The translations under genes and the position numbers were made by a program. A DNA stretch of 32,000 nucleotides from Candidatus Omnitrophota bacterium. Its GTDB lineage: Bacteria > Omnitrophota > Gorgyraeia > Duberdicusellales > 4484-171. The notes beneath the pieces were generated by a model. It saw only the letters and a list, made by a program, of their open reading frames with translations, was not told where the DNA came from and searched no databases. Shown here in pieces: positions 1-26,487 of the stretch (the stretch's first letter is position 1; every line of letters starts with the position of its first letter). The DNA lies in contig JAIPHU010000003.1 of NCBI GenBank assembly GCA_021735045.1, forward strand, positions 42,476 to 74,475. The letters are read 5' to 3'.

Positions 1-339
1 CAGGTGCCCAAGCAAGCGTGAATCCATGTAATTAAGTGCTTTGCCATTGGAGAAATTGAAAATTACTCTAGCCCGTTCTTGGCTTTCTCCATAATGAAGC
101 CAGCCGGTCATTCTTAAATGAATTACTAAAAATTTTTCTTTTTTTAATTTAAGAATCAAAAGCTTGCCCCGCCTGATCACCTTTTCAACTTCTTGACCAA
201 TAATTTCTTTTTTAAATTGGGGCCAGGATGGTTCTTTTATCACTTCAACTCTGTTAATTTTTACTGCAGTAATTTCTTCCCCGAGAACATTTTCGGCTAA
301 TTCTCTTTTGATTGTCTCGACTTCTGGTAATTCTGGCAT
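1..339 (-). CDS. mutM: formamidopyrimidine-DNA glycosylase (Fpg/MutM), N-terminal 113 codons; continues beyond the window edge
   Basis: Absent from the ORF track because it is open at the edge. My reverse-strand translation from the ATG (337-339) reads MPELPEVETIKRELAENVLGEEITAVKINRVEV...FLVIHLRMTGWLHYGE...YMDSRLLGHL. The PELPEVE N-terminus and HLxMTG are Fpg hallmarks. AAGGA lies 9 nt upstream. Confidence 0.85.
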   Translation of the reverse strand, partial: MPELPEVETIKRELAENVLGEEITAVKINRVEVIKEPSWPQFKKEIIGQEVEKVIRRGKLLILKLKKEKFLVIHLRMTGWLHYGESQERARVIFNFSNGKALNYMDSRLLGHL

Positions 340-472
340 AGCTTTTTATCCTTTATTTTATTCTTTGTATCAAATTATTTTCTTTTTTATATAGATAACG
401 TCGGATCCAATATTATTATTGATTAAGTTTTGCTTCGCAAAAATTGGATGCGACTTCTGGTAATTCTGGCAT
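318..472 (-). repeat. 22-bp perfect direct repeat (318-339 = 451-472; first 22 nt of mutM) bracketing a 111-bp structured non-coding insert (340-450)
   Basis: CGACTTCTGGTAATTCTGGCAT occurs twice on the plus strand, 133 bp apart. The insert folds (minus strand) into the stem 454-443/411-400 with one C:C mismatch, plus the hairpin TTTTGC-GAA-GCAAAA (442-428). The upstream copy keeps an RBS (GGAGAG) and ATG but runs into a stop after 18 codons. Confidence 0.85.
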
Positions 473-500
473 TATACTCTCCAGGTTAACTCAATTTATT

Positions 501-584
501 ATCAACGAATATACGAATCAATTACGAATTTACAAATAGAAATAAATATTCGTATATTCGTAGGAGATTGGTAAATTCGTTGAT
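501..584 (-). repeat. 84-bp repeat element, copy A (promoter-like cassette with six ACGAAT/ATTCGT hexamers); partner at 26373-26459 in inverted orientation
   Basis: The reverse complement aligns by eye to 26373-26459 at roughly 90 percent identity; the promoter-proximal 37 nt are identical. Minus-strand -35 TTGTAA (535-530), 16-nt spacer, -10 TATATT (513-508). Terminal inverted decamers ATCAACGAAT / ATTCGTTGAT. Confidence 0.8.
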
Positions 585-8339: not shown

Positions 8340-8384
8340 GGGAAGGAGTAAAGTTGTTTAAGAAAATAATAGCACATCCAAATT

Positions 8385-8433
8385 ATGCAAACTTCGGCGT
8401 AAGCCGAAGCTAGGCCGAAGGCCTTTTTTGCAT
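8385..8433 (-). terminator. double-hairpin element enclosed by a 7-bp stem; likely terminator after tRNA-Glu
   Basis: Minus strand: ATGCAAA-aaa-GGCC TTC GGCC-tag-CTTCGGC TTAC GCCGAAG-TTTGCAT, followed by AATTT. GC-rich hairpins in an AT-rich spacer. Confidence 0.4.
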
Positions 8434-8588
8434 CCAGCAACACTTTAATGCTAACTCTTGCTTTTACTATTACCTACTAGTTTTTAAAAAAACCTATAGT
8501 CTATCATAAGTAAAAGCTGAAGACGTTGGCTGAAGAATTATCTCCGTTTTTGATTTACAAATAACATTTTTAATACAAATAAAAACAA

Positions 8589-8721: not shown

Positions 8722-11163
8722 CTAACTACCCGGTACAACGTGAGCAATAGCAGCCAACTTATCTTGTTTGCCCAAGTTTATGACTTTAACTCCCTGGGTT
8801 GATCGCCCAGAAATACGAATATCGCCTACTTTGGTTCTAATCAGTATCCCTTTTTGCGTAATATACATTACTTGATCTTCAGCTTTAACCAAAAGTATTC
8901 CTTTTACTTCTCCCAATTTAGAAGAAAGTTTTATATTAATTATCCCCTTCCCGCCTCTTGATTGACTTCTATACTCTTTAATCTTAGTTCTTTTAGCAAA
9001 CCCTTTTTCAGTTGCGGTTAAAAGGAATAAATCCTCGGTCTTAAGGCTGGGTTCTATAATTCCCATGCCCAAAACTATATCTGATTTAGTTAGTTTGATT
9101 CCGCGGACTCCTTGTGACTGTCGGCCGGTAGCTCTAGCTTGCTTAACCGCAAAACGAATCGATAATCCTTTTTTAGTCGCAAGCACCAAATCATCTTTTT
9201 CTGTAGAGAGCTGAACCCCAATAAGCCTGTCTCCTTTTTTTAGGCTTATAGCAATAATCCCGGTTTTACGTGCGTTGGCAAATAATTCTAGAGAACATCT
9301 TTTAACCATACCTTTTTGGGTAGCCATAAGCAGAAAAGAGTTGGAATCAAATTCTTTTACCGAAAGAACGGCGGTAATTTGAACTTCGTTCTTTAGATTC
9401 AAAACATTAACAATGGCTCTTCCTTTTGAGGTACGAGAGCCTTGGGGAACTTCATAAGTTTTAAGCGGATAAGCTTTCCCTTCGTTAGTAAAAATTAAAA
9501 GAGTATCTTTGCTTGAAGCAACAAAAAGATGCTGAACAAAGTCTGTATCTGAGGTCGCCATGGCAGTTACCCCCCTGCCGCCTCTTTTCTGGTGCCGGTA
9601 GGTAGTAATTGGCATCCTTTTTATATACCCTAACCTACTTATCGCCACCACCATATCTTCTTCAACAATTAAATCTTCTACTTCTATTTCTTCATTTTCT
9701 GCAACAATATCAGTTCTTCGCTTGTCAGAAAATTTATCTTTAATCTCTTTTAGTTCTTCTTTTATTAACTCTTCTTGTTTCTTGCCAGAAGAAAGGATAT
9801 TATTCAAATATTGGATTCTTTTCAGGAGCTCCTTGTACTCTTGATCTATCTTTTTTCTTTCCAGAGCACAAAGCCTTTGTAACTGCATTTGTAAAATCGC
9901 CTGAGCTTGAACTTGAGATAACTTAAATTCTTTAATTAAAGTTTTTTCTGCATCTTTAGGGTCTTTAGCCTGTTTTATTATTTTTATTATTCTATCTAAA
10001 TTTTTTAATGCTATTTTTAACCCTTCGAGAATATGAGCTCTTTTTTCGGCTTTACTAAGTTGAAATTTGGTCCGCCGAATAATAACTTCTCTTCTAAAAT
10101 TTATATGATGTGATAGTATATCTTTTAAACCAAGCCTTTGAGGGGTCCTGTTAACCAAAGCCAAAAATATGGCTCCAAAGGTTGTCTTCATACTAGTATG
10201 CTTATACAATTGGTTTAAAATTATTTCTGCTTGGGCGCCTCTTTTTAGTTCAATAACTATTCTTATCCCGTCTCGATCTGATTCATCGCGAAGATCAGAA
10301 ACTCCTTCTATTTTTCCTTTATTTACAATATTAGCTATTTGTTCTAAAAGAGTGGTTTTATTCAACTGATAGGGAATTTCGGTAACTACGATGTAATTTT
10401 TATTTTTTTCTTTTTCAATAGTAGCTCTAGCTTTGATCGTAAGCTTACCCCTTCCTGTTTTATACATATCTAATATATCTGTTTTGCCACAAATAATTCC
10501 ACCGGTAGGAAAATCTGGCCCTTTTATATATTTATGAAGTTTTTTAACCGTCGCTTTTGGGTTATCAATTAGATAAGCAAGTGCATCACAAACTTCCCCT
10601 AAGTTATGGGGTGGAATATTAGTAGACATCCCCACTGCAATTCCACTTGCTCCATTACACAAAAGATTAGGTAAAACTGAAGGTAGCACTTCCGGTTCTG
10701 TAAGAGAATTGTCAAAATTAGGAAAGAAGTTTACCGTGTCTTTGTCTATATCTTGGAGCATATAATCTGATATTTTTGCCATCCGGCATTCCGAGTAACG
10801 CATCGCTGCTGCTGGGTCGCCATCGATTGAACCAAAATTTCCTTGCCCGTCAACTACCGGATAACGCAAGGAAAAATCCTGAGCCATCCTAACTAAAGCA
10901 TCATAAACTGCTGAATCTCCATGGGGATGGTACTTTCCTAAAACTTCTCCGACAACTCTGGCACTTTTTTTATAAGATTGATTGTAGCGAAGATGGATGC
11001 CTTCCATCGCATAAAGGATCCTCCTTTGGACTGGTTTCAACCCATCTCTAATATCTGGCAAAGCCCTTCCTACAATAACACTCATCGCATAAGACAGATA
11101 AGATTCCTTCATTTCTTCTTCGAGGAATCTGTTAATGATGTTTTCTTTAAAATTTTGTTTCAT
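8722..11163 (-). CDS. gyrA: DNA gyrase subunit A
   Basis: 813-aa ORF with [24 protein letters not shown] (active-site Tyr region) and a C-terminal beta-pinwheel repeat region. Confidence 0.95.
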
Positions 11164-11178
11164 TTTTAAATCGCTTTT

Positions 11179-13533
<2,355 letters not shown>

Positions 13534-16502: not shown

Positions 16503-16540
16503 TTCAACTTACCTGATAGTATATTGAATTTAAAAAAGGC

Positions 16541-16740
16541 GATGAGCTATATAAGTATAGTTAATTTTTGATAAAAAGATAACTAAAAGGTGCAAAATGT
16601 ATGCGTTTTTTGCCGCAGGCAAACATTCTCTAGCTATTGCCTAAGAGAATATAACGCATCCATGTAATGTATTAGACTCACAAACAGTGATGAGCTATAT
16701 AAGTATAGTTAATTTTTGATAAAAAGATAACTAAAAGGTG
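16541..16740 (+). repeat. 52-bp perfect direct repeat (16541-16592 = 16689-16740; rpmH leader including SD) bracketing a 96-bp structured insert (16593-16688)
   Basis: GATGAGCTATATAAGTATAGTTAATTTTTGATAAAAAGATAACTAAAAGGTG occurs twice, 148 bp apart. The insert folds into the stem 16597-16607/16653-16663 with one T:C mismatch, hairpin TTTGCC-GCA-GGCAAA (16609-16623) and hairpin 16625-16650. Confidence 0.85.
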
Positions 16741-16747
16741 AAAAAAC

Positions 16748-16885
16748 ATGAAAAAAAATCTAAAAACACCTAGTAATTTAAAAGGGAAAAGAAAACACGG
16801 TTTTCGTAAGAGGATGAGCTCGAAAAACGGGAAAAAAATAGTAAATCAACGGCGAAGAAAAGGGCGTAAAAAAATATCTGTATGA
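16748..16885 (+). CDS. rpmH: 50S ribosomal protein L34
   Basis: Below the ORF-track size cutoff. My translation is [45 protein letters not shown] (45 aa). The HGFRKRM..GR motif is L34-specific. Overlaps yidD in ATGA. Confidence 0.9.
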
Positions 16886-17088
16886 GAAGGGCTGCTATCT
16901 TTTTAATCCAGATATATCAAAAACTTCCCCAATTCTTGCCTACTTCTTGCATATATATCCCAACTTGTTCTGAATATGCTAAGCAAGCTTTTGAGAAGCA
17001 TTTCTTTTTAAAGGCTTTGGGGTTGACTGTATTTCGCATCTTACGTTGTAATCCTTTTTCACGAGGTGGGTTTGACCCTGTGAGGTAA
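16882..17088 (+). CDS. yidD: membrane protein insertion efficiency factor YidD
   Basis: 68-aa ORF with the C.Y.PTCSEYA...RCNPF..GG.DPV pattern. Confidence 0.88.
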
Positions 17089-17090
17089 CA

Positions 17091-18536
17091 ATGGAAAAAA
17101 GAACAGTTTTTGCTTTTTTATTGTTGATTGGCTTTTTTTTGGTTTGGTCTCAGTTTGCTCCAAAGAAGGTTCCACAAACGCTTGAAGGACAAGAAGTTGT
17201 AAGCGAAAGCGTGCAAACGACCCCCCAAGAGCCTCAGCCGAAAATATCGGAAGCCGGAGAAAAAAGCCTTCCTGCAGAAGGTGTCGCCCTCAAAGAAATA
17301 AAAATAAATAACTACTATATTACCTATTCTCCTCAGGGTGGATATATTCAGTCCATTGCTTTAAATAAACCAACTAATATTCTTCCTTTTCAGAACTTAG
17401 GGTACCAATCAGCGAAAAAGGACATAAACTATAAAGTTAATGTTGGGCAAGACAGCATTTCTTTTGTTGAGGGCAGTTCCCCTCCCAAAAAATATGTTTT
17501 TAGTGAGGATACCATAAAGATAGAAAATGTTGCCGGCTCCCCCATTTTATTGTTTTCATTTTCTTTAAATTCAGGAACTTCACATATAAGTAAAAGGTAT
17601 TTTGAATCATTTTATAGTAAAGATAAATCTATCCAAAGAACCCATCCTAAAAAAGTTAAACAAGAAGTTGAAAAAAGAGTAGAATTTGCCGGGGCTAGGA
17701 GTAGGTATTATGCAATTAGTTTATTACCCGATCTTTATAATATTGAATGGAGCAAAACTAAAGAAAGAACAAATCTTTACCTAAATAATCCTTCCTCCAC
17801 CATATTGCTTTATCTTGGGCCGCAAATTACCGACAATATGGAAACATATGGGTTGGCGGGTATAGTTTATTATGGGTTTTGGCATTTTTTGGCGGTAGCA
17901 ATTATAAAAATACTATATTTTTTCTATAGTTTTCTGCATAATTGGGGGCTTAGTATAATCTTTCTTTCTTTTTCTACTTATGCTGTGCTGTTTCCTTTTA
18001 CTTCAAAAAGTACCAAAGCAATGAAAAAGATGCAAGAGATTCAGCCCTTAATGCAAGAGTTAAAAGAAAAACATAAAGATAATCCTCAAAAGATGCAAAA
18101 AGAGACTGTTGAGCTTTATAAAAAGCATAAAGTAAACCCTTTGGGCGGGTGTCTTCCTCTTTTGTTTCAATTCCCGATAATTATTGCTTTTTATCAAGTA
18201 GTCTTTAGGTTTAGCCGGCTTCAAGGAGCTTCTTTTCTTTGGATTCAGGATCTATCCTTGCCGGATCGGTTGTTCCATTTGCCTTTTACGATTCCTGTTG
18301 TAGGTGTTGAATATTTTAATCTTCTTCCTATTCTAGTAATGATTTTAGGAATTGTTCAACAACACATAACAGCTTCTTCGTCAAATCCTCAACAAAAAAA
18401 GATAGGTTTATTTATGGGAGTATTTATTGGAATAATATTTTATAAGTTTCCTTCTGCATTAGTTTTGTATTGGTTTGTGCAAAATCTACTCACTCTTATC
18501 TACCAAGTCCGTTTGAAAAAAGCCCGCACCACCTAA
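17091..18536 (+). CDS. yidC: membrane protein insertase YidC
   Basis: 481-aa ORF with an N-terminal TM helix, a periplasmic domain and the 60-kDa insertase core (...KMQEIQPLMQELKEKHKDNPQKMQKETVELYKKHKVNPLGGCLP...). Confidence 0.9.
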   Translation: MEKRTVFAFLLLIGFFLVWSQFAPKKVPQTLEGQEVVSESVQTTPQEPQPKISEAGEKSLPAEGVALKEIKINNYYITYSPQGGYIQSIALNKPTNILPFQNLGYQSAKKDINYKVNVGQDSISFVEGSSPPKKYVFSEDTIKIENVAGSPILLFSFSLNSGTSHISKRYFESFYSKDKSIQRTHPKKVKQEVEKRVEFAGARSRYYAISLLPDLYNIEWSKTKERTNLYLNNPSSTILLYLGPQITDNMETYGLAGIVYYGFWHFLAVAIIKILYFFYSFLHNWGLSIIFLSFSTYAVLFPFTSKSTKAMKKMQEIQPLMQELKEKHKDNPQKMQKETVELYKKHKVNPLGGCLPLLFQFPIIIAFYQVVFRFSRLQGASFLWIQDLSLPDRLFHLPFTIPVVGVEYFNLLPILVMILGIVQQHITASSSNPQQKKIGLFMGVFIGIIFYKFPSALVLYWFVQNLLTLIYQVRLKKARTT

Positions 18537-18584: not shown

Positions 18585-18602
18585 CGTTTTCACGTGAAAA
18601 CG
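18585..18602. promoter_or_regulatory. parS-like site 1 (perfect 18-bp palindrome CGTTTTCACGTGAAAACG)
   Basis: The central 12 nt TTTCACGTGAAA are identical to the canonical parS TGTTTCACGTGAAACA. Lies upstream of parAB. Confidence 0.65.
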
Positions 18603-18714: not shown

Positions 18715-18730
18715 CGTTTTCACGTGAAAA
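18715..18730. promoter_or_regulatory. parS-like site 2 (CGTTTTCACGTGAAAA)
   Basis: Same core, TTTCACGTGAAA. Confidence 0.6.
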
Positions 18731-18796: not shown

Positions 18797-18813
18797 ATAT
18801 ACACGTGAAAACG
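18797..18813. promoter_or_regulatory. parS-like half-conserved site 3 (ATATACACGTGAAAACG)
   Basis: The right half is identical to site 1 and the left half is degenerate. It is part of a 37-bp repeat (18591-18627 vs 18802-18838). Confidence 0.45.
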
Positions 18814-18956
18814 CTAGAACCCCTTGATTTTATTAACAATTCTCATTTTGGTTGTTATTTTTTTTGAGTAATTAAATAAAAATGGTTGCAATTCTCATCA
18901 AATAGTATTAAAATAAAGAAAATTGAAATATTTATATATTATTGATAACAAAAGAT

Positions 18957-19748
18957 ATGGGTAAAATAATTGGTATTTGTAATCAAAAAGGTGGGACCGG
19001 CAAAACAACAACTGCCATTAACTTTAGTTCTTTTTTAGGGCTGGCAGGGGAAAAGACTCTTCTTGTGGACATGGATCCCCAGGGCAATGCTTCTTCTGGA
19101 GTTGGCATAGATCCTCAAGGTAAAAAATCAGCTTATGAGGTAATTTCAGGAGATGCCCAGGTAGAGGAAGCTATTTATTCTACAGATTGGCCTAATTTAT
19201 CTGTTATGCCCTCAGATATATCTCTTACTGGTGGAGAAGTTGAGTTGGTTTCTTTGAACCAGCGGGAACTACTGCTGCGGCAAAGTCTTGAGAAGATTAA
19301 AGACGAGTATTCCTATATAGTTATTGACGCCCCTCCTTCTTTAGGAGTACTTACTGTTAATGTGTTGTCTGCCGCTGACAGTTTAATTATACCAGTTCAA
19401 TGTGAGTATTATGCACTAGAAGGAGTTTCGAAATTGATCGGCACGATTGAGTTAATAAAAGAAAGGCTTAATCCAGGCTTAGAAATTGAAGGGGTTTTGT
19501 TGACTATGGCAGATTTTCGAACCCGGCTTACTTTACAAGTAATAGAAGAAGTAAGAAACTATTTTAAAAATAAAGCTTTTAGCATTATTGTTCCCAGAAA
19601 CGTGAAGTTAGCTGAAGCTCCTAGTTTTGGCAAACCTATCTATTTTTATGAATCCGGTTGTGTGGGGGCGAAAGCTTACTTAGAGTTGACTAATGAAGTT
19701 GTAGGGCAAGTTCAAGAAATAAATAACTTTGTTAAGCAGAGAGGTTGA
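18957..19748 (+). CDS. parA: chromosome partitioning ATPase ParA/Soj
   Basis: Deviant Walker A NQKGGTGKTT. I prefer the ATG at 18957 (MGKIIGICNQKGG) over the track's TTG at 18942. Confidence 0.9.
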   Translation: MGKIIGICNQKGGTGKTTTAINFSSFLGLAGEKTLLVDMDPQGNASSGVGIDPQGKKSAYEVISGDAQVEEAIYSTDWPNLSVMPSDISLTGGEVELVSLNQRELLLRQSLEKIKDEYSYIVIDAPPSLGVLTVNVLSAADSLIIPVQCEYYALEGVSKLIGTIELIKERLNPGLEIEGVLLTMADFRTRLTLQVIEEVRNYFKNKAFSIIVPRNVKLAEAPSFGKPIYFYESGCVGAKAYLELTNEVVGQVQEINNFVKQRG

Positions 19749-22778: not shown

Positions 22779-22850
22779 GGCGCGGTAGCCAAGTGGCAAG
22801 GCGGTGGTTTGCAAAACCATTATTCACCGGTTCAAATCCGGTCCGCGCCT
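22779..22850 (+). tRNA. tRNA-Cys (anticodon GCA)
   Basis: Acceptor GGCGCGG/CCGCGCC, anticodon stem GTGGT/ACCAT with loop TTGCAAA, T arm ACCGG-TTCAAAT-CCGGT, discriminator T. Confidence 0.88.
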
Positions 22851-22871: not shown

Positions 22872-22901
22872 TGCATAGCGCAAAGCGCTTAGCGCTATGC
22901 A
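22872..22901 (+). terminator. 30-nt near-perfect palindrome TGCATAGCGC-A-AAGCGCTT-A-GCGCTATGCA after tRNA-Cys
   Basis: Read directly. It shares its 5' arm TGCATAGCGC with the hairpin at 23167-23189. Confidence 0.4.
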
Positions 22902-22930: not shown

Positions 22931-23087
22931 AAACTTATTGCCGGGGTGTTGGCAAGAACTTCTTGCCGAAGGCAAGCTAGTTTGCTTATACGTGTACAGT
23001 TCTTCCCAAAGATTTTGGAGATAAAACAAAACTATTGCTAATTTGAAAACTAATAAATTAAGGATAAACTTATTGCCGGGGTGTTGG
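22931..23087 (+). repeat. 22-bp perfect direct repeat (22931-22952 = 23066-23087; 9 nt of leader plus first 13 nt of tRNA-Leu) bracketing a 113-bp structured insert (22953-23065)
   Basis: AAACTTATTGCCGGGGTGTTGG occurs twice, 135 bp apart. The insert folds into the stem 22949-22960/22998-23009 with one C:C mismatch and the hairpin CTTGCC-GAA-GGCAAG (22962-22976). Confidence 0.85.
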
Positions 23088-23160
23088 AATTGGCAGACAA
23101 CTCGGACTTAAAATCCGGTGTTCCGAAAGGGACGTGCGGGTTCAAGTCCCGCCCCCGGCA
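23075..23160 (+). tRNA. tRNA-Leu (anticodon UAA), class II with long variable arm
   Basis: Acceptor GCCGGGG/CCCCGGC, anticodon loop CTTAAAA, variable arm GTTCCGAAAGGGAC, T arm GCGGG-TTCAAGT-CCCGC, discriminator A. Confidence 0.9.
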
Positions 23161-23166
23161 TATTTT

Positions 23167-23189
23167 TGCATAGCGCTAGGCGCTAAGCA
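23167..23189 (+). terminator. hairpin TGCATAGCGC-tag-GCGCTAAGCA after tRNA-Leu, with a T-run 7 nt downstream
   Basis: Read directly. Confidence 0.4.
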
Positions 23190-23201
23190 CTGAGTGTTTT
23201 T

Positions 23202-26372: not shown

Positions 26373-26459
26373 ATCAACGAATTTACTAATCTCTACGAAT
26401 ATACGAACATTTGTTTTTTCTTATTTGTAAATTCGTAATTGATTCGTATATTCGTTGAT
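26373..26459 (+). repeat. 87-bp repeat element, copy B (promoter-like cassette upstream of accA)
   Basis: Inverted copy of 501-584. -35 TTGTAA (26425-26430), 16 nt, -10 TATATT (26447-26452). Three ACGAA(T/C) hexamers lie upstream and three ATTCGT hexamers overlap the core promoter. Confidence 0.8.
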
Positions 26460-26487
26460 CATAAGCAAAGCTAACCAGGAGAGCACG

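Follow-up and report, generated by a model that had tools for sequence, protein, structure and literature searches.

The MIRUs of mycobacteria are sense-oriented units of about 50-150 nt that lie at overlapping stop/start junctions and vary in number between strains. They keep translational coupling by means of in-frame small ORFs and have neither a hairpin head nor a stub of the downstream gene. In fungal mitochondria, GIY-YIG and LAGLIDADG genes are found beside partial duplications of a host gene end; one complete copy of the gene persists, and degenerate remnants of the ORFs are common (PMC6279837). Penelope-like retroelements, which are eukaryotic and combine reverse transcriptase with GIY-YIG, are accompanied by 5'-truncated upstream tandem partial copies, by 30-40-bp extensions at the insertion ends and by variable flanking repeats (PMC8557442). 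Genes for tRNAs are themselves common integration sites, and integration leaves partial tRNA copies and repeats of 15-45 bp (PMC9897764). In the locus described here, part of a 32,000-nucleotide stretch of DNA from an Omnitrophota bacterium (the window), the 5' end of a tRNA-Leu gene stands on both sides of a small structured insert. Literature searches on mobile promoters, on Omnitrophota repeats and on GIY-YIG genes associated with tRNA genes turned up no such arrangement.

The tRNA-Leu locus

The 22-mer AAACTTATTGCCGGGGTGTTGG occurs exactly twice in the window, both times on the + strand; no further match with up to 3 mismatches is present in the window, and the number expected from 100 shuffles is 0. 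It comprises 9 nt of leader and tRNA positions 1-13. The downstream copy opens the intact tRNA-Leu(UAA), located by ARAGORN and Rfam at 23074/23075-23160/23161, and the insert between the two copies begins 13 nt inside the gene. The proposal made in an earlier note on this DNA, that the 5' end of tRNA-Leu is duplicated around a 113-bp insert and leaves a 13-nt stub, is thus borne out. Its description of the stub as running into a closing helix and pairing through TTGG and CCAA also holds: the 7-bp helix (arms at 22954-22960 and 22998-23004) is flanked by the two tetranucleotides as claimed, and the pairing recurs as a rule of the family (see below). The features of the locus are the following.

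22779-22850, + strand: tRNA-Cys(GCA), the upstream neighbour in the tRNA cluster
22931-22952, + strand: upstream copy of the 22-nt direct repeat, with 9 nt of leader and a dead 13-nt tRNA-Leu stub (22940-22952)
22953-23065, + strand: the tRNA-Leu insert, a probable insertion element of 113 nt, in the order C, fold, C, CCAA, A-rich tail
22954-23004, + strand: fold of the element, a 7-bp stem AAGAACT/AGTTCTT around the minihairpin CTTGCC-GAA-GGCAAG and a variable segment
23006-23009, + strand: CCAA, which base-pairs with the stub's final tetranucleotide TTGG (22949-22952), leaving a C/C mismatch in between
23043-23070, + strand: putative promoter-like hexamers TTGAAA-16-TAAACT in the element tail, kept in relatives L090 and L083
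23066-23087, + strand: second, downstream copy of the direct repeat (22 nt), which supplies the intact gene with its leader and positions 1-13
23075-23160, + strand: intact tRNA-Leu(UAA) (ARAGORN, Rfam)

The idea that the tail supplies a new promoter for the tRNA fared less well. The two hexamers are present as described, 16 nt apart, and a match of this quality to the consensus (9 of 12 positions) is no commoner than in shuffled sequence, so that promoter status is not established by it. The -10 hexamer TAAACT ends 4 nt before tRNA position 1, and a normal start site would therefore fall at or inside the mature tRNA. Retention of the hexamers in orthologues, together with a tail-only leader in three relatives (see below), is compatible with a promoter and no proof of one.

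A sequence search with the insert against the window did not find a second copy; the family to which it belongs can be recognised only by structure and architecture. Terminal inverted repeats are absent: the 5' end of the element, CAAGAACTT..., and its 3' end, ...AATTAAGGAT, are not complementary, and the same is true of the element at mutM described next. Among Rfam 15 models, only tRNAs reach gathering scores in the window, and a permissive search (E up to 10) of the surroundings of the copies at tRNA-Leu and rpmH gave no credible match. Folded as RNA, the region around tRNA-Leu is not better than shuffles (z -1.7).

Related folds elsewhere in the window

Three further copies of the fold are found in the window, at mutM, in the leader of rpmH and in an intergenic position near 8385; all four window copies are non-coding. 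At mutM a different 22-nt repeat, ATGCCAGAATTACCAGAAGTCG, at 472..451 and 339..318 of the minus strand, surrounds a 111-nt insert, whose CGAC (403..400) pairs with GTCG at the end of the stub.

451-472, - strand: mutM stub, the upstream copy of ATGCCAGAATTACCAGAAGTCG, made of the start codon and 19 nt
340-450, - strand: sister element at mutM, 111 nt, with its fold at 449..405, stem ATCCAAT/ATTGGAT and minihairpin TTTTGC-GAA-GCAAAA
318-339, - strand: downstream copy of the mutM repeat, the true mutM start
16517-16599, + strand: fold-less partial copy of the rpmH element's tail with ATG, an 81-nt repeat with a 52-nt exact core
16600-16747, + strand: rpmH sister element, situated in the leader behind an ATG, with its fold at 16601-16659 and a tail reaching the rpmH start codon at 16748
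8385-8433, + strand: fourth fold copy, intergenic and antisense to its neighbours, with neither a flanking repeat nor the 4-nt pairing

A covariance model was trained on folds from rpmH and yidD alone, with the tRNA-Leu, mutM and 8385 copies left out of training. It gave four clean matches in the window: rpmH, a trained copy (81.6 bits), tRNA-Leu (22953-23006, 26.3 bits, E 1.2e-4), the 8385 copy (8384-8435, 26.1 bits, E 1.4e-4) and mutM (450..403, 24.3 bits, E 4e-4). The next-best match on any other sequence scored at most 9.3 bits. The same model also finds copies at rpmH in L174, at tRNA-Leu in L090 and L091 and at gmk in L175. That a model trained on neither insert recovers both (E about 1e-4), together with the presence/absence polymorphism in relatives, bears out the earlier suggestion that the inserts at tRNA-Leu and mutM share an origin. 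The AAGGAT motif that had been offered as a sign of this common origin is weak by itself (local-alignment z 1.9 for the two tails).

In the family alignment 92% of pair cells are paired, versus 78.5% in shuffles and 35-54% in slid controls, figures that lean towards structure since the alignment is model-fitted and includes the training sequences. Changes on both sides are seen in 14 of 21 pairs, a count with the same leaning, as it comes from that model-fitted alignment with its training sequences. Compensatory changes also occur between orthologous folds; hairpin 1 is wholly replaced in L174, and the second hairpin is absent from some copies.

The fold shows no similarity to the downstream parts of tRNA-Leu and mutM, and an origin from either was rejected. 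Matches to a relaxed descriptor of the fold in unrelated genomes (28 per 734 kb) proved to be ordinary hairpins, and applying the 4-nt pairing filter left only long perfect palindromes; descriptor matches in L052 and L172 were inspected and dismissed. A search for MutM homologues yielded no close relatives. Contig scans with a DnaA query and with the MutM N-terminus gave, among the matches listed, only distant loci, which served as negative controls.

Architecture and insertion rules

The elements follow one plan, in which an A-rich tail of 55-130 nt is attached to a structured head. A single base opens the head; a three-way-junction fold closed by a 7-bp stem comes next, and a C and 4 further nt complete it. 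The trinucleotide CCA directly follows the stem in the rpmH, yidD, gmk and 8385 copies, and C plus CCA does so at tRNA-Leu. All copies at gene starts are in sense orientation; they lie within the gene, 3-24 nt from its beginning, and the accompanying repeat of 4-25 nt spans the start of the gene. Repeat length is not fixed (22, 22, 25, about 24, 8, 6 and 4-6 nt, depending on the site). The elements that enter at an ATG (rpmH, yidD, gmk) end in the same (N)ATG after which they are inserted. Pairing between the stub and the 4 nt after the fold is found in four independent elements, those at mutM, tRNA-Leu, yidD and rpmH (in L174), with a probability by chance of about 0.007 per element. The signature of a repeat of at least 16 nt running directly into a hairpin was found 4 times in 1.98 Mb of unrelated loci, versus 2 times in the 32-kb window and 3 times in L090.

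Several other roles for these structures were considered and rejected. A leader peptide was suggested by short ORFs that lead from the ATG of the stub into the fold; it was dismissed because they enter the fold in differing frames and because a start codon is missing at tRNA-Leu. A guide role of the stub for an RNA-guided protein was also rejected: the insert is bordered immediately by the repeats, which range from 4 to 81 nt in length, and the neighbourhood has no effector gene. A CRISPR-like mini-array was ruled out because the repeats differ between loci.

Presence and absence in relatives

The comparison with tRNA-Leu loci of relatives, which the earlier note had proposed, showed the unit to be present 0, 1 or 2 times. 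The same structure as in the window is found in L001, a second metagenome-assembled genome (MAG) of the same species (99.8% identical), and in three MAGs of a sister species, whose element copies (L090-92) are 87% identical to that of the window; a fourth assembly, from another project, has the stub and then the start of the insert. Recovery from several MAGs and from an independent project argues that the structure is no assembly accident. One unit is present in the window, L001, L090 and L092, and two in tandem in L091; insert-free alleles occur in L093 and L180. A stub shared by all relatives with no insert-free allele and no other copy of the fold, which the earlier note had said would speak against it, is therefore not what is seen. 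In L175 the tRNA-Leu stub is followed by the element start at a contig end (the contig stops 11 nt into the element), and in L177 the locus holds a 100-N gap flanked by a 30-nt repeat. In L083-85 the tail alone serves as the tRNA-Leu leader, stub and fold being absent. Simple repeat-by-repeat deletion does not give this allele, and the tail could be native.

Both copies of the repeat change together between genomes, reading AAACTTATT in the window and AAACTTACC in L090. The tRNA-Leu element is old; it is conserved about as well as coding DNA and is present in genomes with 80-85% gmk identity (L090-92, L175). Its age and coding-like conservation also fit a selected function.

The yidD element is found in L083-86 only, the gmk element in L175 only and a tRNA-Asp element in L090-92 only, and each site is precisely empty in the other genomes, the window included. 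Over 130 nt the gmk element of L175 shares 71% identity with the rpmH element, and L175 has no element at rpmH. The clade sample amounts to about 0.3 Mb, in which copy number and site preference are poorly sampled.

Elements with a GIY-YIG gene

In L180 a tRNA-Asp stub is followed by a hairpin, an ORF of the GIY-YIG family (Pfam PF01541, E 2.5e-14) and then the intact tRNA-Asp. The same layout of stub, hairpin, GIY-YIG ORF and gene is found at tRNA-Glu in L003 and at tRNA-Ser in L143, where the stub is 36 nt long and 32 nt of it form an exact repeat. The ORFs span about 77-86 aa and have no DNA-binding domain. The tRNA-Asp element of L090, which has no ORF, retains 29 aa of the C-terminus of the L180 ORF (59% identity, E 1.7e-4).

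The tRNA-Leu element of the window contains neither an ORF nor a significant GIY-YIG remnant, and the tails of the mutM and tRNA-Leu elements show no match to the remnant (z 1.2-1.9). The 4-nt pairing between the stub and the sequence after the fold is absent from the GIY-YIG elements. The three-way-junction elements of the window would be linked to the GIY-YIG hairpin elements by shared architecture and lineage, with no significant sequence similarity. Genes for a transposase, a nuclease or a reverse transcriptase are absent from the window; the roughly 0.3 Mb of loci examined likewise showed no reverse transcriptase, and no integrase was found in the window or in the relatives' loci. GIY-YIG relatives in viral contigs do not lie beside tRNAs and have no stubs, the tail pattern of the rpmH type gave two chance matches in viral contigs, both in coding DNA, and the elements were unmatched in phage and plasmid collections.

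Interpretation

The insert at tRNA-Leu is probably a non-autonomous member of a lineage-specific family of small mobile insertion elements that target the 5' ends of genes, a family that is apparently undescribed. Its point of entry into tRNA-Leu would have been the junction of positions 13 and 14, in sense orientation. At the end of the target the four bases TTGG pair with the CCAA beside the fold, which suggests that the site was chosen by base pairing or microhomology. The 22 bp upstream of the insertion point, 9 nt of leader and positions 1-13, stand on either side of the element, and a complete tRNA-Leu would thereby have been rebuilt behind it. The old leader and the 13-nt stub would be left in front as a dead remnant, and the tail of the element would become the new leader of the intact gene. 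Recombination between the repeats could then change the number of units (0, 1 or 2) and, within one genome, keep the two copies of the repeat the same. Since relatives have elements of this architecture with a GIY-YIG gene of roughly 85 aa between the hairpin and the rebuilt gene, the family is most likely mobilised by such a nuclease. Full-length copies would be served in cis and miniatures such as the tRNA-Leu insert in trans; another enzyme might take its place. We know of no mechanism that would predict duplications of 22-25 nt of this kind in bacteria.

A wider claim may be put forward tentatively, and we regard it as rather doubtful: that these loci represent an undescribed class of bacterial mobile element, with minimal autonomous units of about 0.3-0.4 kb, each a hairpin head joined to a gene for a GIY-YIG nuclease (about 80-90 aa), and with miniatures of 110-170 nt that have no ORF. 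Members of such a class would insert in sense orientation into the first 3-36 nt of tRNA and protein genes, at sites selected by 4-nt pairing with the hairpin base, and would regenerate the gene 5' end by a long, variable duplication, so that the native leader or promoter of an essential gene is replaced and the host survives.

Other explanations have to be weighed against the family of mobile elements. It is conceivable, and in our judgement unlikely, that the insert is a regulatory or processing device of the host: a three-way junction in the 5' leader, formed in RNA or single-stranded DNA after a decoy gene start, that insulates the gene from upstream transcription or acts as a tRNA-like processing signal, with repeats that arose by local tandem duplication and are kept identical by selection or gene conversion. 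Such a device would account for the compensatory changes that preserve the fold in genomes down to 81% gmk identity, for repeat copies that change in step between genomes, for the homology of the L083 leader to the tail and for a tRNA-Leu copy shared with genomes as distant as L175 (80% gmk identity) and possibly, though ambiguously, L177 (64%); the CCA that follows the 7-bp stem in most copies would suit a processing signal. It does not account for homologous fold-plus-tail units at non-orthologous sites that are precisely empty elsewhere (rpmH versus gmk in L175, yidD in the L083 group only), nor for the antisense, intergenic 8385 copy, which has no gene to serve. The loss of the second hairpin from some copies, the lack of an Rfam match and the z of -1.7 for RNA folding at tRNA-Leu also tell against it. 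The two readings are not exclusive, since a host may recruit a mobile element for its own purposes. Assembly or binning error at a repeat of a metagenome-assembled genome deserves scarcely any credence: short-read MAGs do break here, as in L175 and L177, and yet five MAG contigs from two species run unbroken through the identical structure, the two-unit allele is assembled in L091, and repeat copies and element diverge coherently between species.

Two further readings keep mobility and change the agent. Transposition of the IS200/IS605 type, with the insert as a single-strand miniature (PATE- or REP-like) moved by a Y1 HUH transposase, seems quite improbable. The 4-nt pairing would then be the contact between guide and cleavage site, and the repeat would be no true target duplication but the outcome of cleavage at the same tetranucleotide on the left and on the right, the right end having moved into the gene. 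The complementarity beside the hairpin foot in four elements agrees with this, and the elements that end in their own insertion (N)ATG (rpmH, yidD, gmk) need no real duplication. A GNA triloop closed by C-G forms an unusually stable DNA minihairpin, and GC skew suggests that the top strand of three of the four window copies is on the lagging-strand template. Genes for Y1_Tnp (PF01797) lie on the same contig (L082, 17781-18638) and beside the tRNA cluster in L093; the hairpins that flank them, however, are unrelated to the fold. Moreover, IS200/IS605 elements make no target duplication, whereas tRNA-Leu, mutM and tRNA-Asp show 22-25-nt repeats of target sequence, only one end is structured, and the geometry is unlike that of IS608. 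Still less credible, and in our view very improbable, is the remnant of an integrative element targeted to a tRNA gene, in which the 22-nt repeats would be attL and attR cores and the 113 nt the residue of a deletion. The frequent use of tRNA genes as integration sites speaks for it, but the part duplicated here is the 5' part of the gene and not the usual 3' part, no integrase is nearby, the same architecture is found at the starts of protein genes (mutM, rpmH, yidD, gmk), and size and head structure are uniform across loci, with tandem units in L091.

If the mobile-element interpretation is correct, these would be among the smallest mobile elements known and would avoid harm in an unusual way, entering essential genes (tRNA-Leu, tRNA-Asp, rpmH, gmk, yidD) and rebuilding the gene start behind them. 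They would account for the orphan 5' fragments of tRNAs and the doubled start codons found in genomes of uncultured bacteria, and offer one route by which the leaders and promoters of housekeeping genes are replaced. Target choice by 4-nt pairing with a hairpin would be open to testing, and might be connected with a minimal nuclease, of the GIY-YIG type, that could interest biotechnology. As a strain marker, the variable unit number (0, 1 or 2) is ready for use. Even on a conservative reading, stubs of this kind are not pseudogenes of separate origin, a point that matters to annotators.

Comparison with known systems

Like bacterial MITEs such as Correia, ERIC and RUP, which can carry outward promoters, the elements are short, non-coding, multi-copy and polymorphic in insertion between strains. 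Unlike MITEs, they have no terminal inverted repeats, their flanking repeat is long and variable (4-25 nt) in place of short and fixed, and they sit strictly in sense orientation just inside gene starts. With IS200/IS605 elements and their miniatures (PATEs, and REP/REPIN with RAYT) they share the lack of terminal inverted repeats; a hairpin-defined end and a tetranucleotide beside the hairpin that would match the target are possible further parallels. These genomes do contain genes for Y1 transposases, with their own unrelated hairpins, and the IS200/IS605 family differs in making no target duplication and in having structured ends on both sides. The ATGA junctions at yidD and gmk and the variable number of units (L090 versus L091) recall the MIRUs, to which no sequence relationship was found.

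The association with GIY-YIG, the variable repeats and the fold-less upstream partial copy at rpmH may be likened, by analogy, to Penelope-like elements, and a structured head with an A-rich tail similarly resembles a SINE. The variable repeats, the A-rich tails and the fold-less upstream copy may be compared in the same way with a retroposon spread by target-primed reverse transcription. Unlike Penelope-like elements, the elements described here are bacterial and 10-30 times smaller, and reverse transcriptase was unseen in the loci examined. The free-standing homing endonucleases of fungi come close: in L180, L003 and L143 a GIY-YIG ORF lies between a stub and a complete gene, and a partial duplication of the host gene end adjoins the element. 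They differ in that the 5' end is duplicated here, and not the C-terminal or 3' end, and in that the hosts are bacterial tRNA and protein genes; the elements have a hairpin head, their ORF is small (about 77-86 aa) and devoid of a DNA-binding domain, and ORF-less miniatures of 111-170 nt dominate. In contrast to classical homing, which disrupts its site, an intact target gene persists here beside the element.

Duplication of the tRNA-Leu start around a hairpin-headed insert

The window, from an Omnitrophota bacterium of ~35% G+C, includes dnaA and a GC-skew switch. A search allowing up to three mismatches finds the 22-mer AAACTTATTGCCGGGGTGTTGG at just two places in it, with no chance copies expected. 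The second copy runs into an intact tRNA-Leu(UAA) of the cluster Cys-Leu-Val-Asp...Met; hence, the repeat comprises 9 nt of leader and tRNA positions 1-13. The 22-nt duplication reported in the earlier note is thus confirmed, and that note's structural interpretation of the locus is essentially right. The features concerned are:

22931-22952 and 23066-23087: copies of AAACTTATTGCCGGGGTGTTGG, the first being a dead upstream copy (stub)
22953-23065: insert (113 nt)
23075-23160: intact tRNA-Leu(UAA), by ARAGORN and Rfam

The insert opens with a C and a 7-bp stem, AAGAACT/AGTTCTT (22954-23004), within which lies the minihairpin CTTGCC-GAA-GGCAAG; C, CCAA and a tail rich in A complete it. An identical structure is present in a second MAG of the species. 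Behind both tRNA-Cys and tRNA-Leu there is a GC-rich hairpin, the two being related (22873-22900, GCATAGCGC...GCGCTATGC; 23168-23196, GCATAGCGCTAGGCGCTAAGC). The first also occurs in the related locus L090 (L numbers denote compared loci); the pair may serve as signals for spacer processing or represent REP-like elements.

A family of folds in the window

Three further folds were recognized:

472..451 and 339..318, minus strand: repeat ATGCCAGAATTACCAGAAGTCG at the mutM start, 111 nt between copies
16601-16659: fold in the rpmH leader, directly behind an ATG
8385-8433, antisense: fold between tRNA-Glu and a 150-aa ORF

The mutM insert opens with C, the stem ATCCAAT/ATTGGAT and the minihairpin TTTTGC-GAA-GCAAAA. 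The fold at 8385-8433 is well formed (stem ATGCAAA/TTTGCAT, hairpins with GTAA and GAA loops, then CCA) and lacks a flanking repeat; the adjoining ORF has no Pfam match, and its first 8 nt, on the opposite strand, coincide with the stem sequence ATGCAAA(A). The window copies share no BLAST-level similarity, and Rfam holds no family matching the fold. A covariance model trained solely on the rpmH and yidD folds of three genomes was run over the window with filters off. Besides the rpmH fold, a member of the training set (81.6 bits), it retrieved the tRNA-Leu (26.3 bits, E 1.2e-4), 8385 (26.1 bits) and mutM (24.3 bits) folds; the next scores were 14 bits (rpmH antisense) and at most 9.3 bits. 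The relatedness of the tRNA-Leu and mutM inserts, suspected in the earlier note, is borne out by their common architecture and by their detection with a model trained on neither.

In the model-fitted alignment, which takes in the training sequences and is biased towards the model, 92% of pair cells are paired, versus 78.5% in shuffles and 35-54% with slid partners, and 14 of 21 pairs vary on both sides. Compensatory changes are clear among orthologous rpmH copies; in L174, hairpin 1 is wholly exchanged (ATCCGC-CAAA-GCGGAT) with the junction retained. A strict version of the motif has no match in 1.4 Mb of unrelated loci. The signature of an exact repeat of at least 16 nt immediately followed by a hairpin of at least 7 bp was counted twice in the window and three times in L090 (20 kb), as against 4 occurrences in 1.98 Mb of unrelated loci.

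Other features were noted nearby. A ~110-bp palindromic repeat at 477-584 (-) and 26373-26483 (+) (ACGAATTTAC.../TATTCGTATATTCG..., 87% identity) runs in one case into the mutM stub and in the other into accA, both copies terminating in the ribosome-binding GGAGAG and an ATG at equal spacing; it could be a shared operator/promoter cassette or a second small mobile element. At 16748-18536, rpmH and yidD overlap, with yidC next; rnpA (RNase P protein) is missing from its usual place in the window and all relatives examined. Three parS-like sites (GTTTTCACGTGAAAAC) lie between yidC and parA (18585-18602, 18715-18730 and 18801-18815), two of them within a 48-nt repeat (18591-18638/18802-18849).

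Pairing at the left junction

The last four target-derived bases of the stub pair with the four bases 3' of the fold, across a one-base mismatch. The TTGG/CCAA pairing noticed earlier at tRNA-Leu therefore holds, and the same rule applies at three other sites.

Stub ends and bases following the fold
mutM: GTCG, CGAC
tRNA-Leu: TTGG, CCAA
L083 yidD: TATG, CATA
L174 rpmH: CATG, CATG

By chance, the 4-nt pairing would be expected at ~0.007 per element; in the remaining rpmH copies, three of the four positions pair. Since the stub bases are gene sequence, either sites are chosen by 4-nt pairing or microhomology, or the element adapts afterwards. The pairing also accounts for two features of the ATG-type elements, their location directly behind start codons and their own ...ATG ends.

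Filled and empty sites in relatives

Relatives were found through gmk homologues and their contigs. Their tRNA-Leu loci carry zero, one or two units, so that the comparison proposed in the earlier note does reveal insert-free loci.

Spacer from tRNA-Cys to tRNA-Leu (gmk identity to the window; length; units)
Window: 223 nt; 1 unit
L090, L092: 85%; 222 nt; 1 unit
L091: 85%; 358 nt; 2 tandem units of 136 nt
L083-85: 89%; 70 nt; 0 units (tail only)
L093: 81%; 78 nt; 0 units
L180: 63%; 343 nt; no stub

L175 (gmk 80%) has the stub GCCGGAGTGTTGG and then CAACAACTCTT at its contig end. L177 (gmk 64%) is ambiguous: exactly 100 N (11005-11104, AAAAAAATAAAAGTTATGCCGGGGTGTTGG on either side) are enclosed by a repeat of 30 nt or more, reflecting either masking or a break in the scaffold at the same tRNA-Leu repeat. 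The orthologous element of L090 is 87% identical to that of the window, and both of its repeat copies read AAACTTACC where the window has AAACTTATT, indicating that the repeats evolve in concert. L001 and L090 both come from GCA_021735225.1. Contig 46 of this bin matches the window at 99.8% identity, and its contig 2 has ~85% gmk identity; having two versions of the locus, the bin mixes two species-level populations.

Other sites are empty in the window. In L090-92, tRNA-Asp carries a 168-nt element with a 25-nt repeat; ahead of the stub stands the native leader known from the window, L083 and L093, and the tail is a new addition. A 136-nt element sits exactly on the rpmH/yidD ATGA overlap in L083-86, and one of ~147 nt on the yicC/gmk ATGA overlap in L175. 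The latter is 71% identical to the rpmH element over 130 nt of fold plus tail; rpmH itself has no element in L175. The fold thus travels with its tail, and the boundaries of filled and empty sites are exact. At gene starts, every copy has the sense orientation and enters 3-24 nt into the gene, with a repeat extending back to the gene start or past it.

These cases bear on the tRNA-Leu tail. In L083-85 the leader is the tail alone, without stub or fold, and aligns convincingly with the tail of the window (z 10); possibly, then, the tail is native and only stub and fold were added. We prefer a secondary loss of the upstream part in L083, because the tail is demonstrably within the insert at tRNA-Asp, yidD and gmk; because L175, more distant than L083, has the stub and fold start; because the L083 junction between TTGT and AAAGG... 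fits a deletion from just past tRNA-Cys to the fold end; and because L090 has a remnant of tail sequence before the stub (z 5.4), as an older tandem array predicts. The tail had also been proposed to supply a new tRNA promoter. The hexamers TTGAAA-16-TAAACT (23043-23070) are indeed present and are retained in L090 and L083; however, the 9/12 consensus match is within shuffle expectation, leaving the promoter unproven. The -10 hexamer ends 4 nt ahead of tRNA position 1, marginal for a full-length precursor.

Association with GIY-YIG nucleases

L180 has an ORF that stops 1 nt short of the intact tRNA-Asp and follows a degenerate stub of that gene and a hairpin (CCCCGA...TCGGGG). Once the 17-nt tandem duplication that breaks this ORF (GTGGCAGCTAGTATATC, 13160-13195) is removed, it encodes an 86-aa GIY-YIG protein (PF01541, E 2.5e-14). 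At L180 9558-13302, protein genes interrupt the Cys-Leu-Val-Asp tRNA cluster, which is conserved elsewhere. The tRNA-Asp element of L090-92 is ORF-less, shares the hairpin context of L180 and keeps EFFDCKRNALIREKEIKRKKSRIYIKHLV, 59% identical to the GIY-YIG C-terminus (tblastn E 1.7e-4), which identifies it as a miniature of an element of this kind. Stub, hairpin, GIY-YIG ORF and complete tRNA are likewise found at tRNA-Glu of a distant Omnitrophota MAG (L003) and at tRNA-Ser of an unrelated groundwater contig (L143), whose 36-nt stub (32 nt exact repeat) extends into the anticodon. In L003 the tRNA-Glu 3' end (AAATCCCGTCAGGGTCATTAAAATAA) is also duplicated ~170 nt downstream around a ~145-nt insert (~18200-18397), so that the two ends of this tRNA carry distinct insertions, a GIY-YIG element on the 5' side and a separate scar on the 3' side. 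The window's own elements contain no significant remnant of a GIY-YIG ORF and its proteins are housekeeping only; the link for the tRNA-Leu element is therefore drawn from architecture and lineage.

Possible mechanism and relation to known systems

The comparisons establish that the element enters the gene in sense a short way behind its start, that the flanking repeat restores the gene, that the left junction shows 4-nt pairing, and that units vary in number and repeats evolve in concert. A trans-acting nuclease, most likely of the GIY-YIG type of the full-length relatives, would open the target; staggered breaks or repair synthesis would produce the repeat, and recombination between repeats would then expand, contract and homogenise the array. 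With an IS200/IS605-like single-strand mechanism, the 4-nt rule and the ATG-type copies would be accounted for, the 22-25-nt repeats would not, and the hairpins of resident Y1 transposase genes are unrelated to the fold. That homologous elements occupy non-orthologous sites fits poorly with an origin in regulation alone; the elements may have been co-opted for RNA processing or insulation.

Two such Y1_Tnp genes were seen. One, on the window's contig ~5-7 kb past the window end (L082 17716-18681; 285 aa, PF01797), lies between two directly oriented copies of the 41-nt hairpin CTTATGCAACATTTCTGTTTGAACCTGTTTTGTTGCATAAG; that contig ends in a 75-nt tandem repeat (19343-19481). The other (L093 6690-7510, 218 aa) lies immediately behind tRNA-Asp, flanked by TGCACTTCGTA(G/A)GTGCA hairpins that have a REP-like GTAG motif and include a 22-nt direct repeat (7400-7421/7488-7509).

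The arrangement was not found in phage and plasmid collections, nor described in the literature searched. Nearest to it are the free-standing homing-endonuclease genes of fungal mitochondria, which adjoin partial duplications of a host gene end, and the hairpin-guided IS200/IS605 family. Penelope-like elements, with GIY-YIG, truncated tandem copies and 30-40-bp end extensions, offer an analogy only. In none of the three is targeting of 5' ends combined with a hairpin at the head, a repeat that is long and variable, and miniature derivatives in bacteria. Pending whole-genome surveys, the family has real potential to define a new class; the tRNA-Leu element is best placed, as a new variant, among small nuclease-associated mobile elements.
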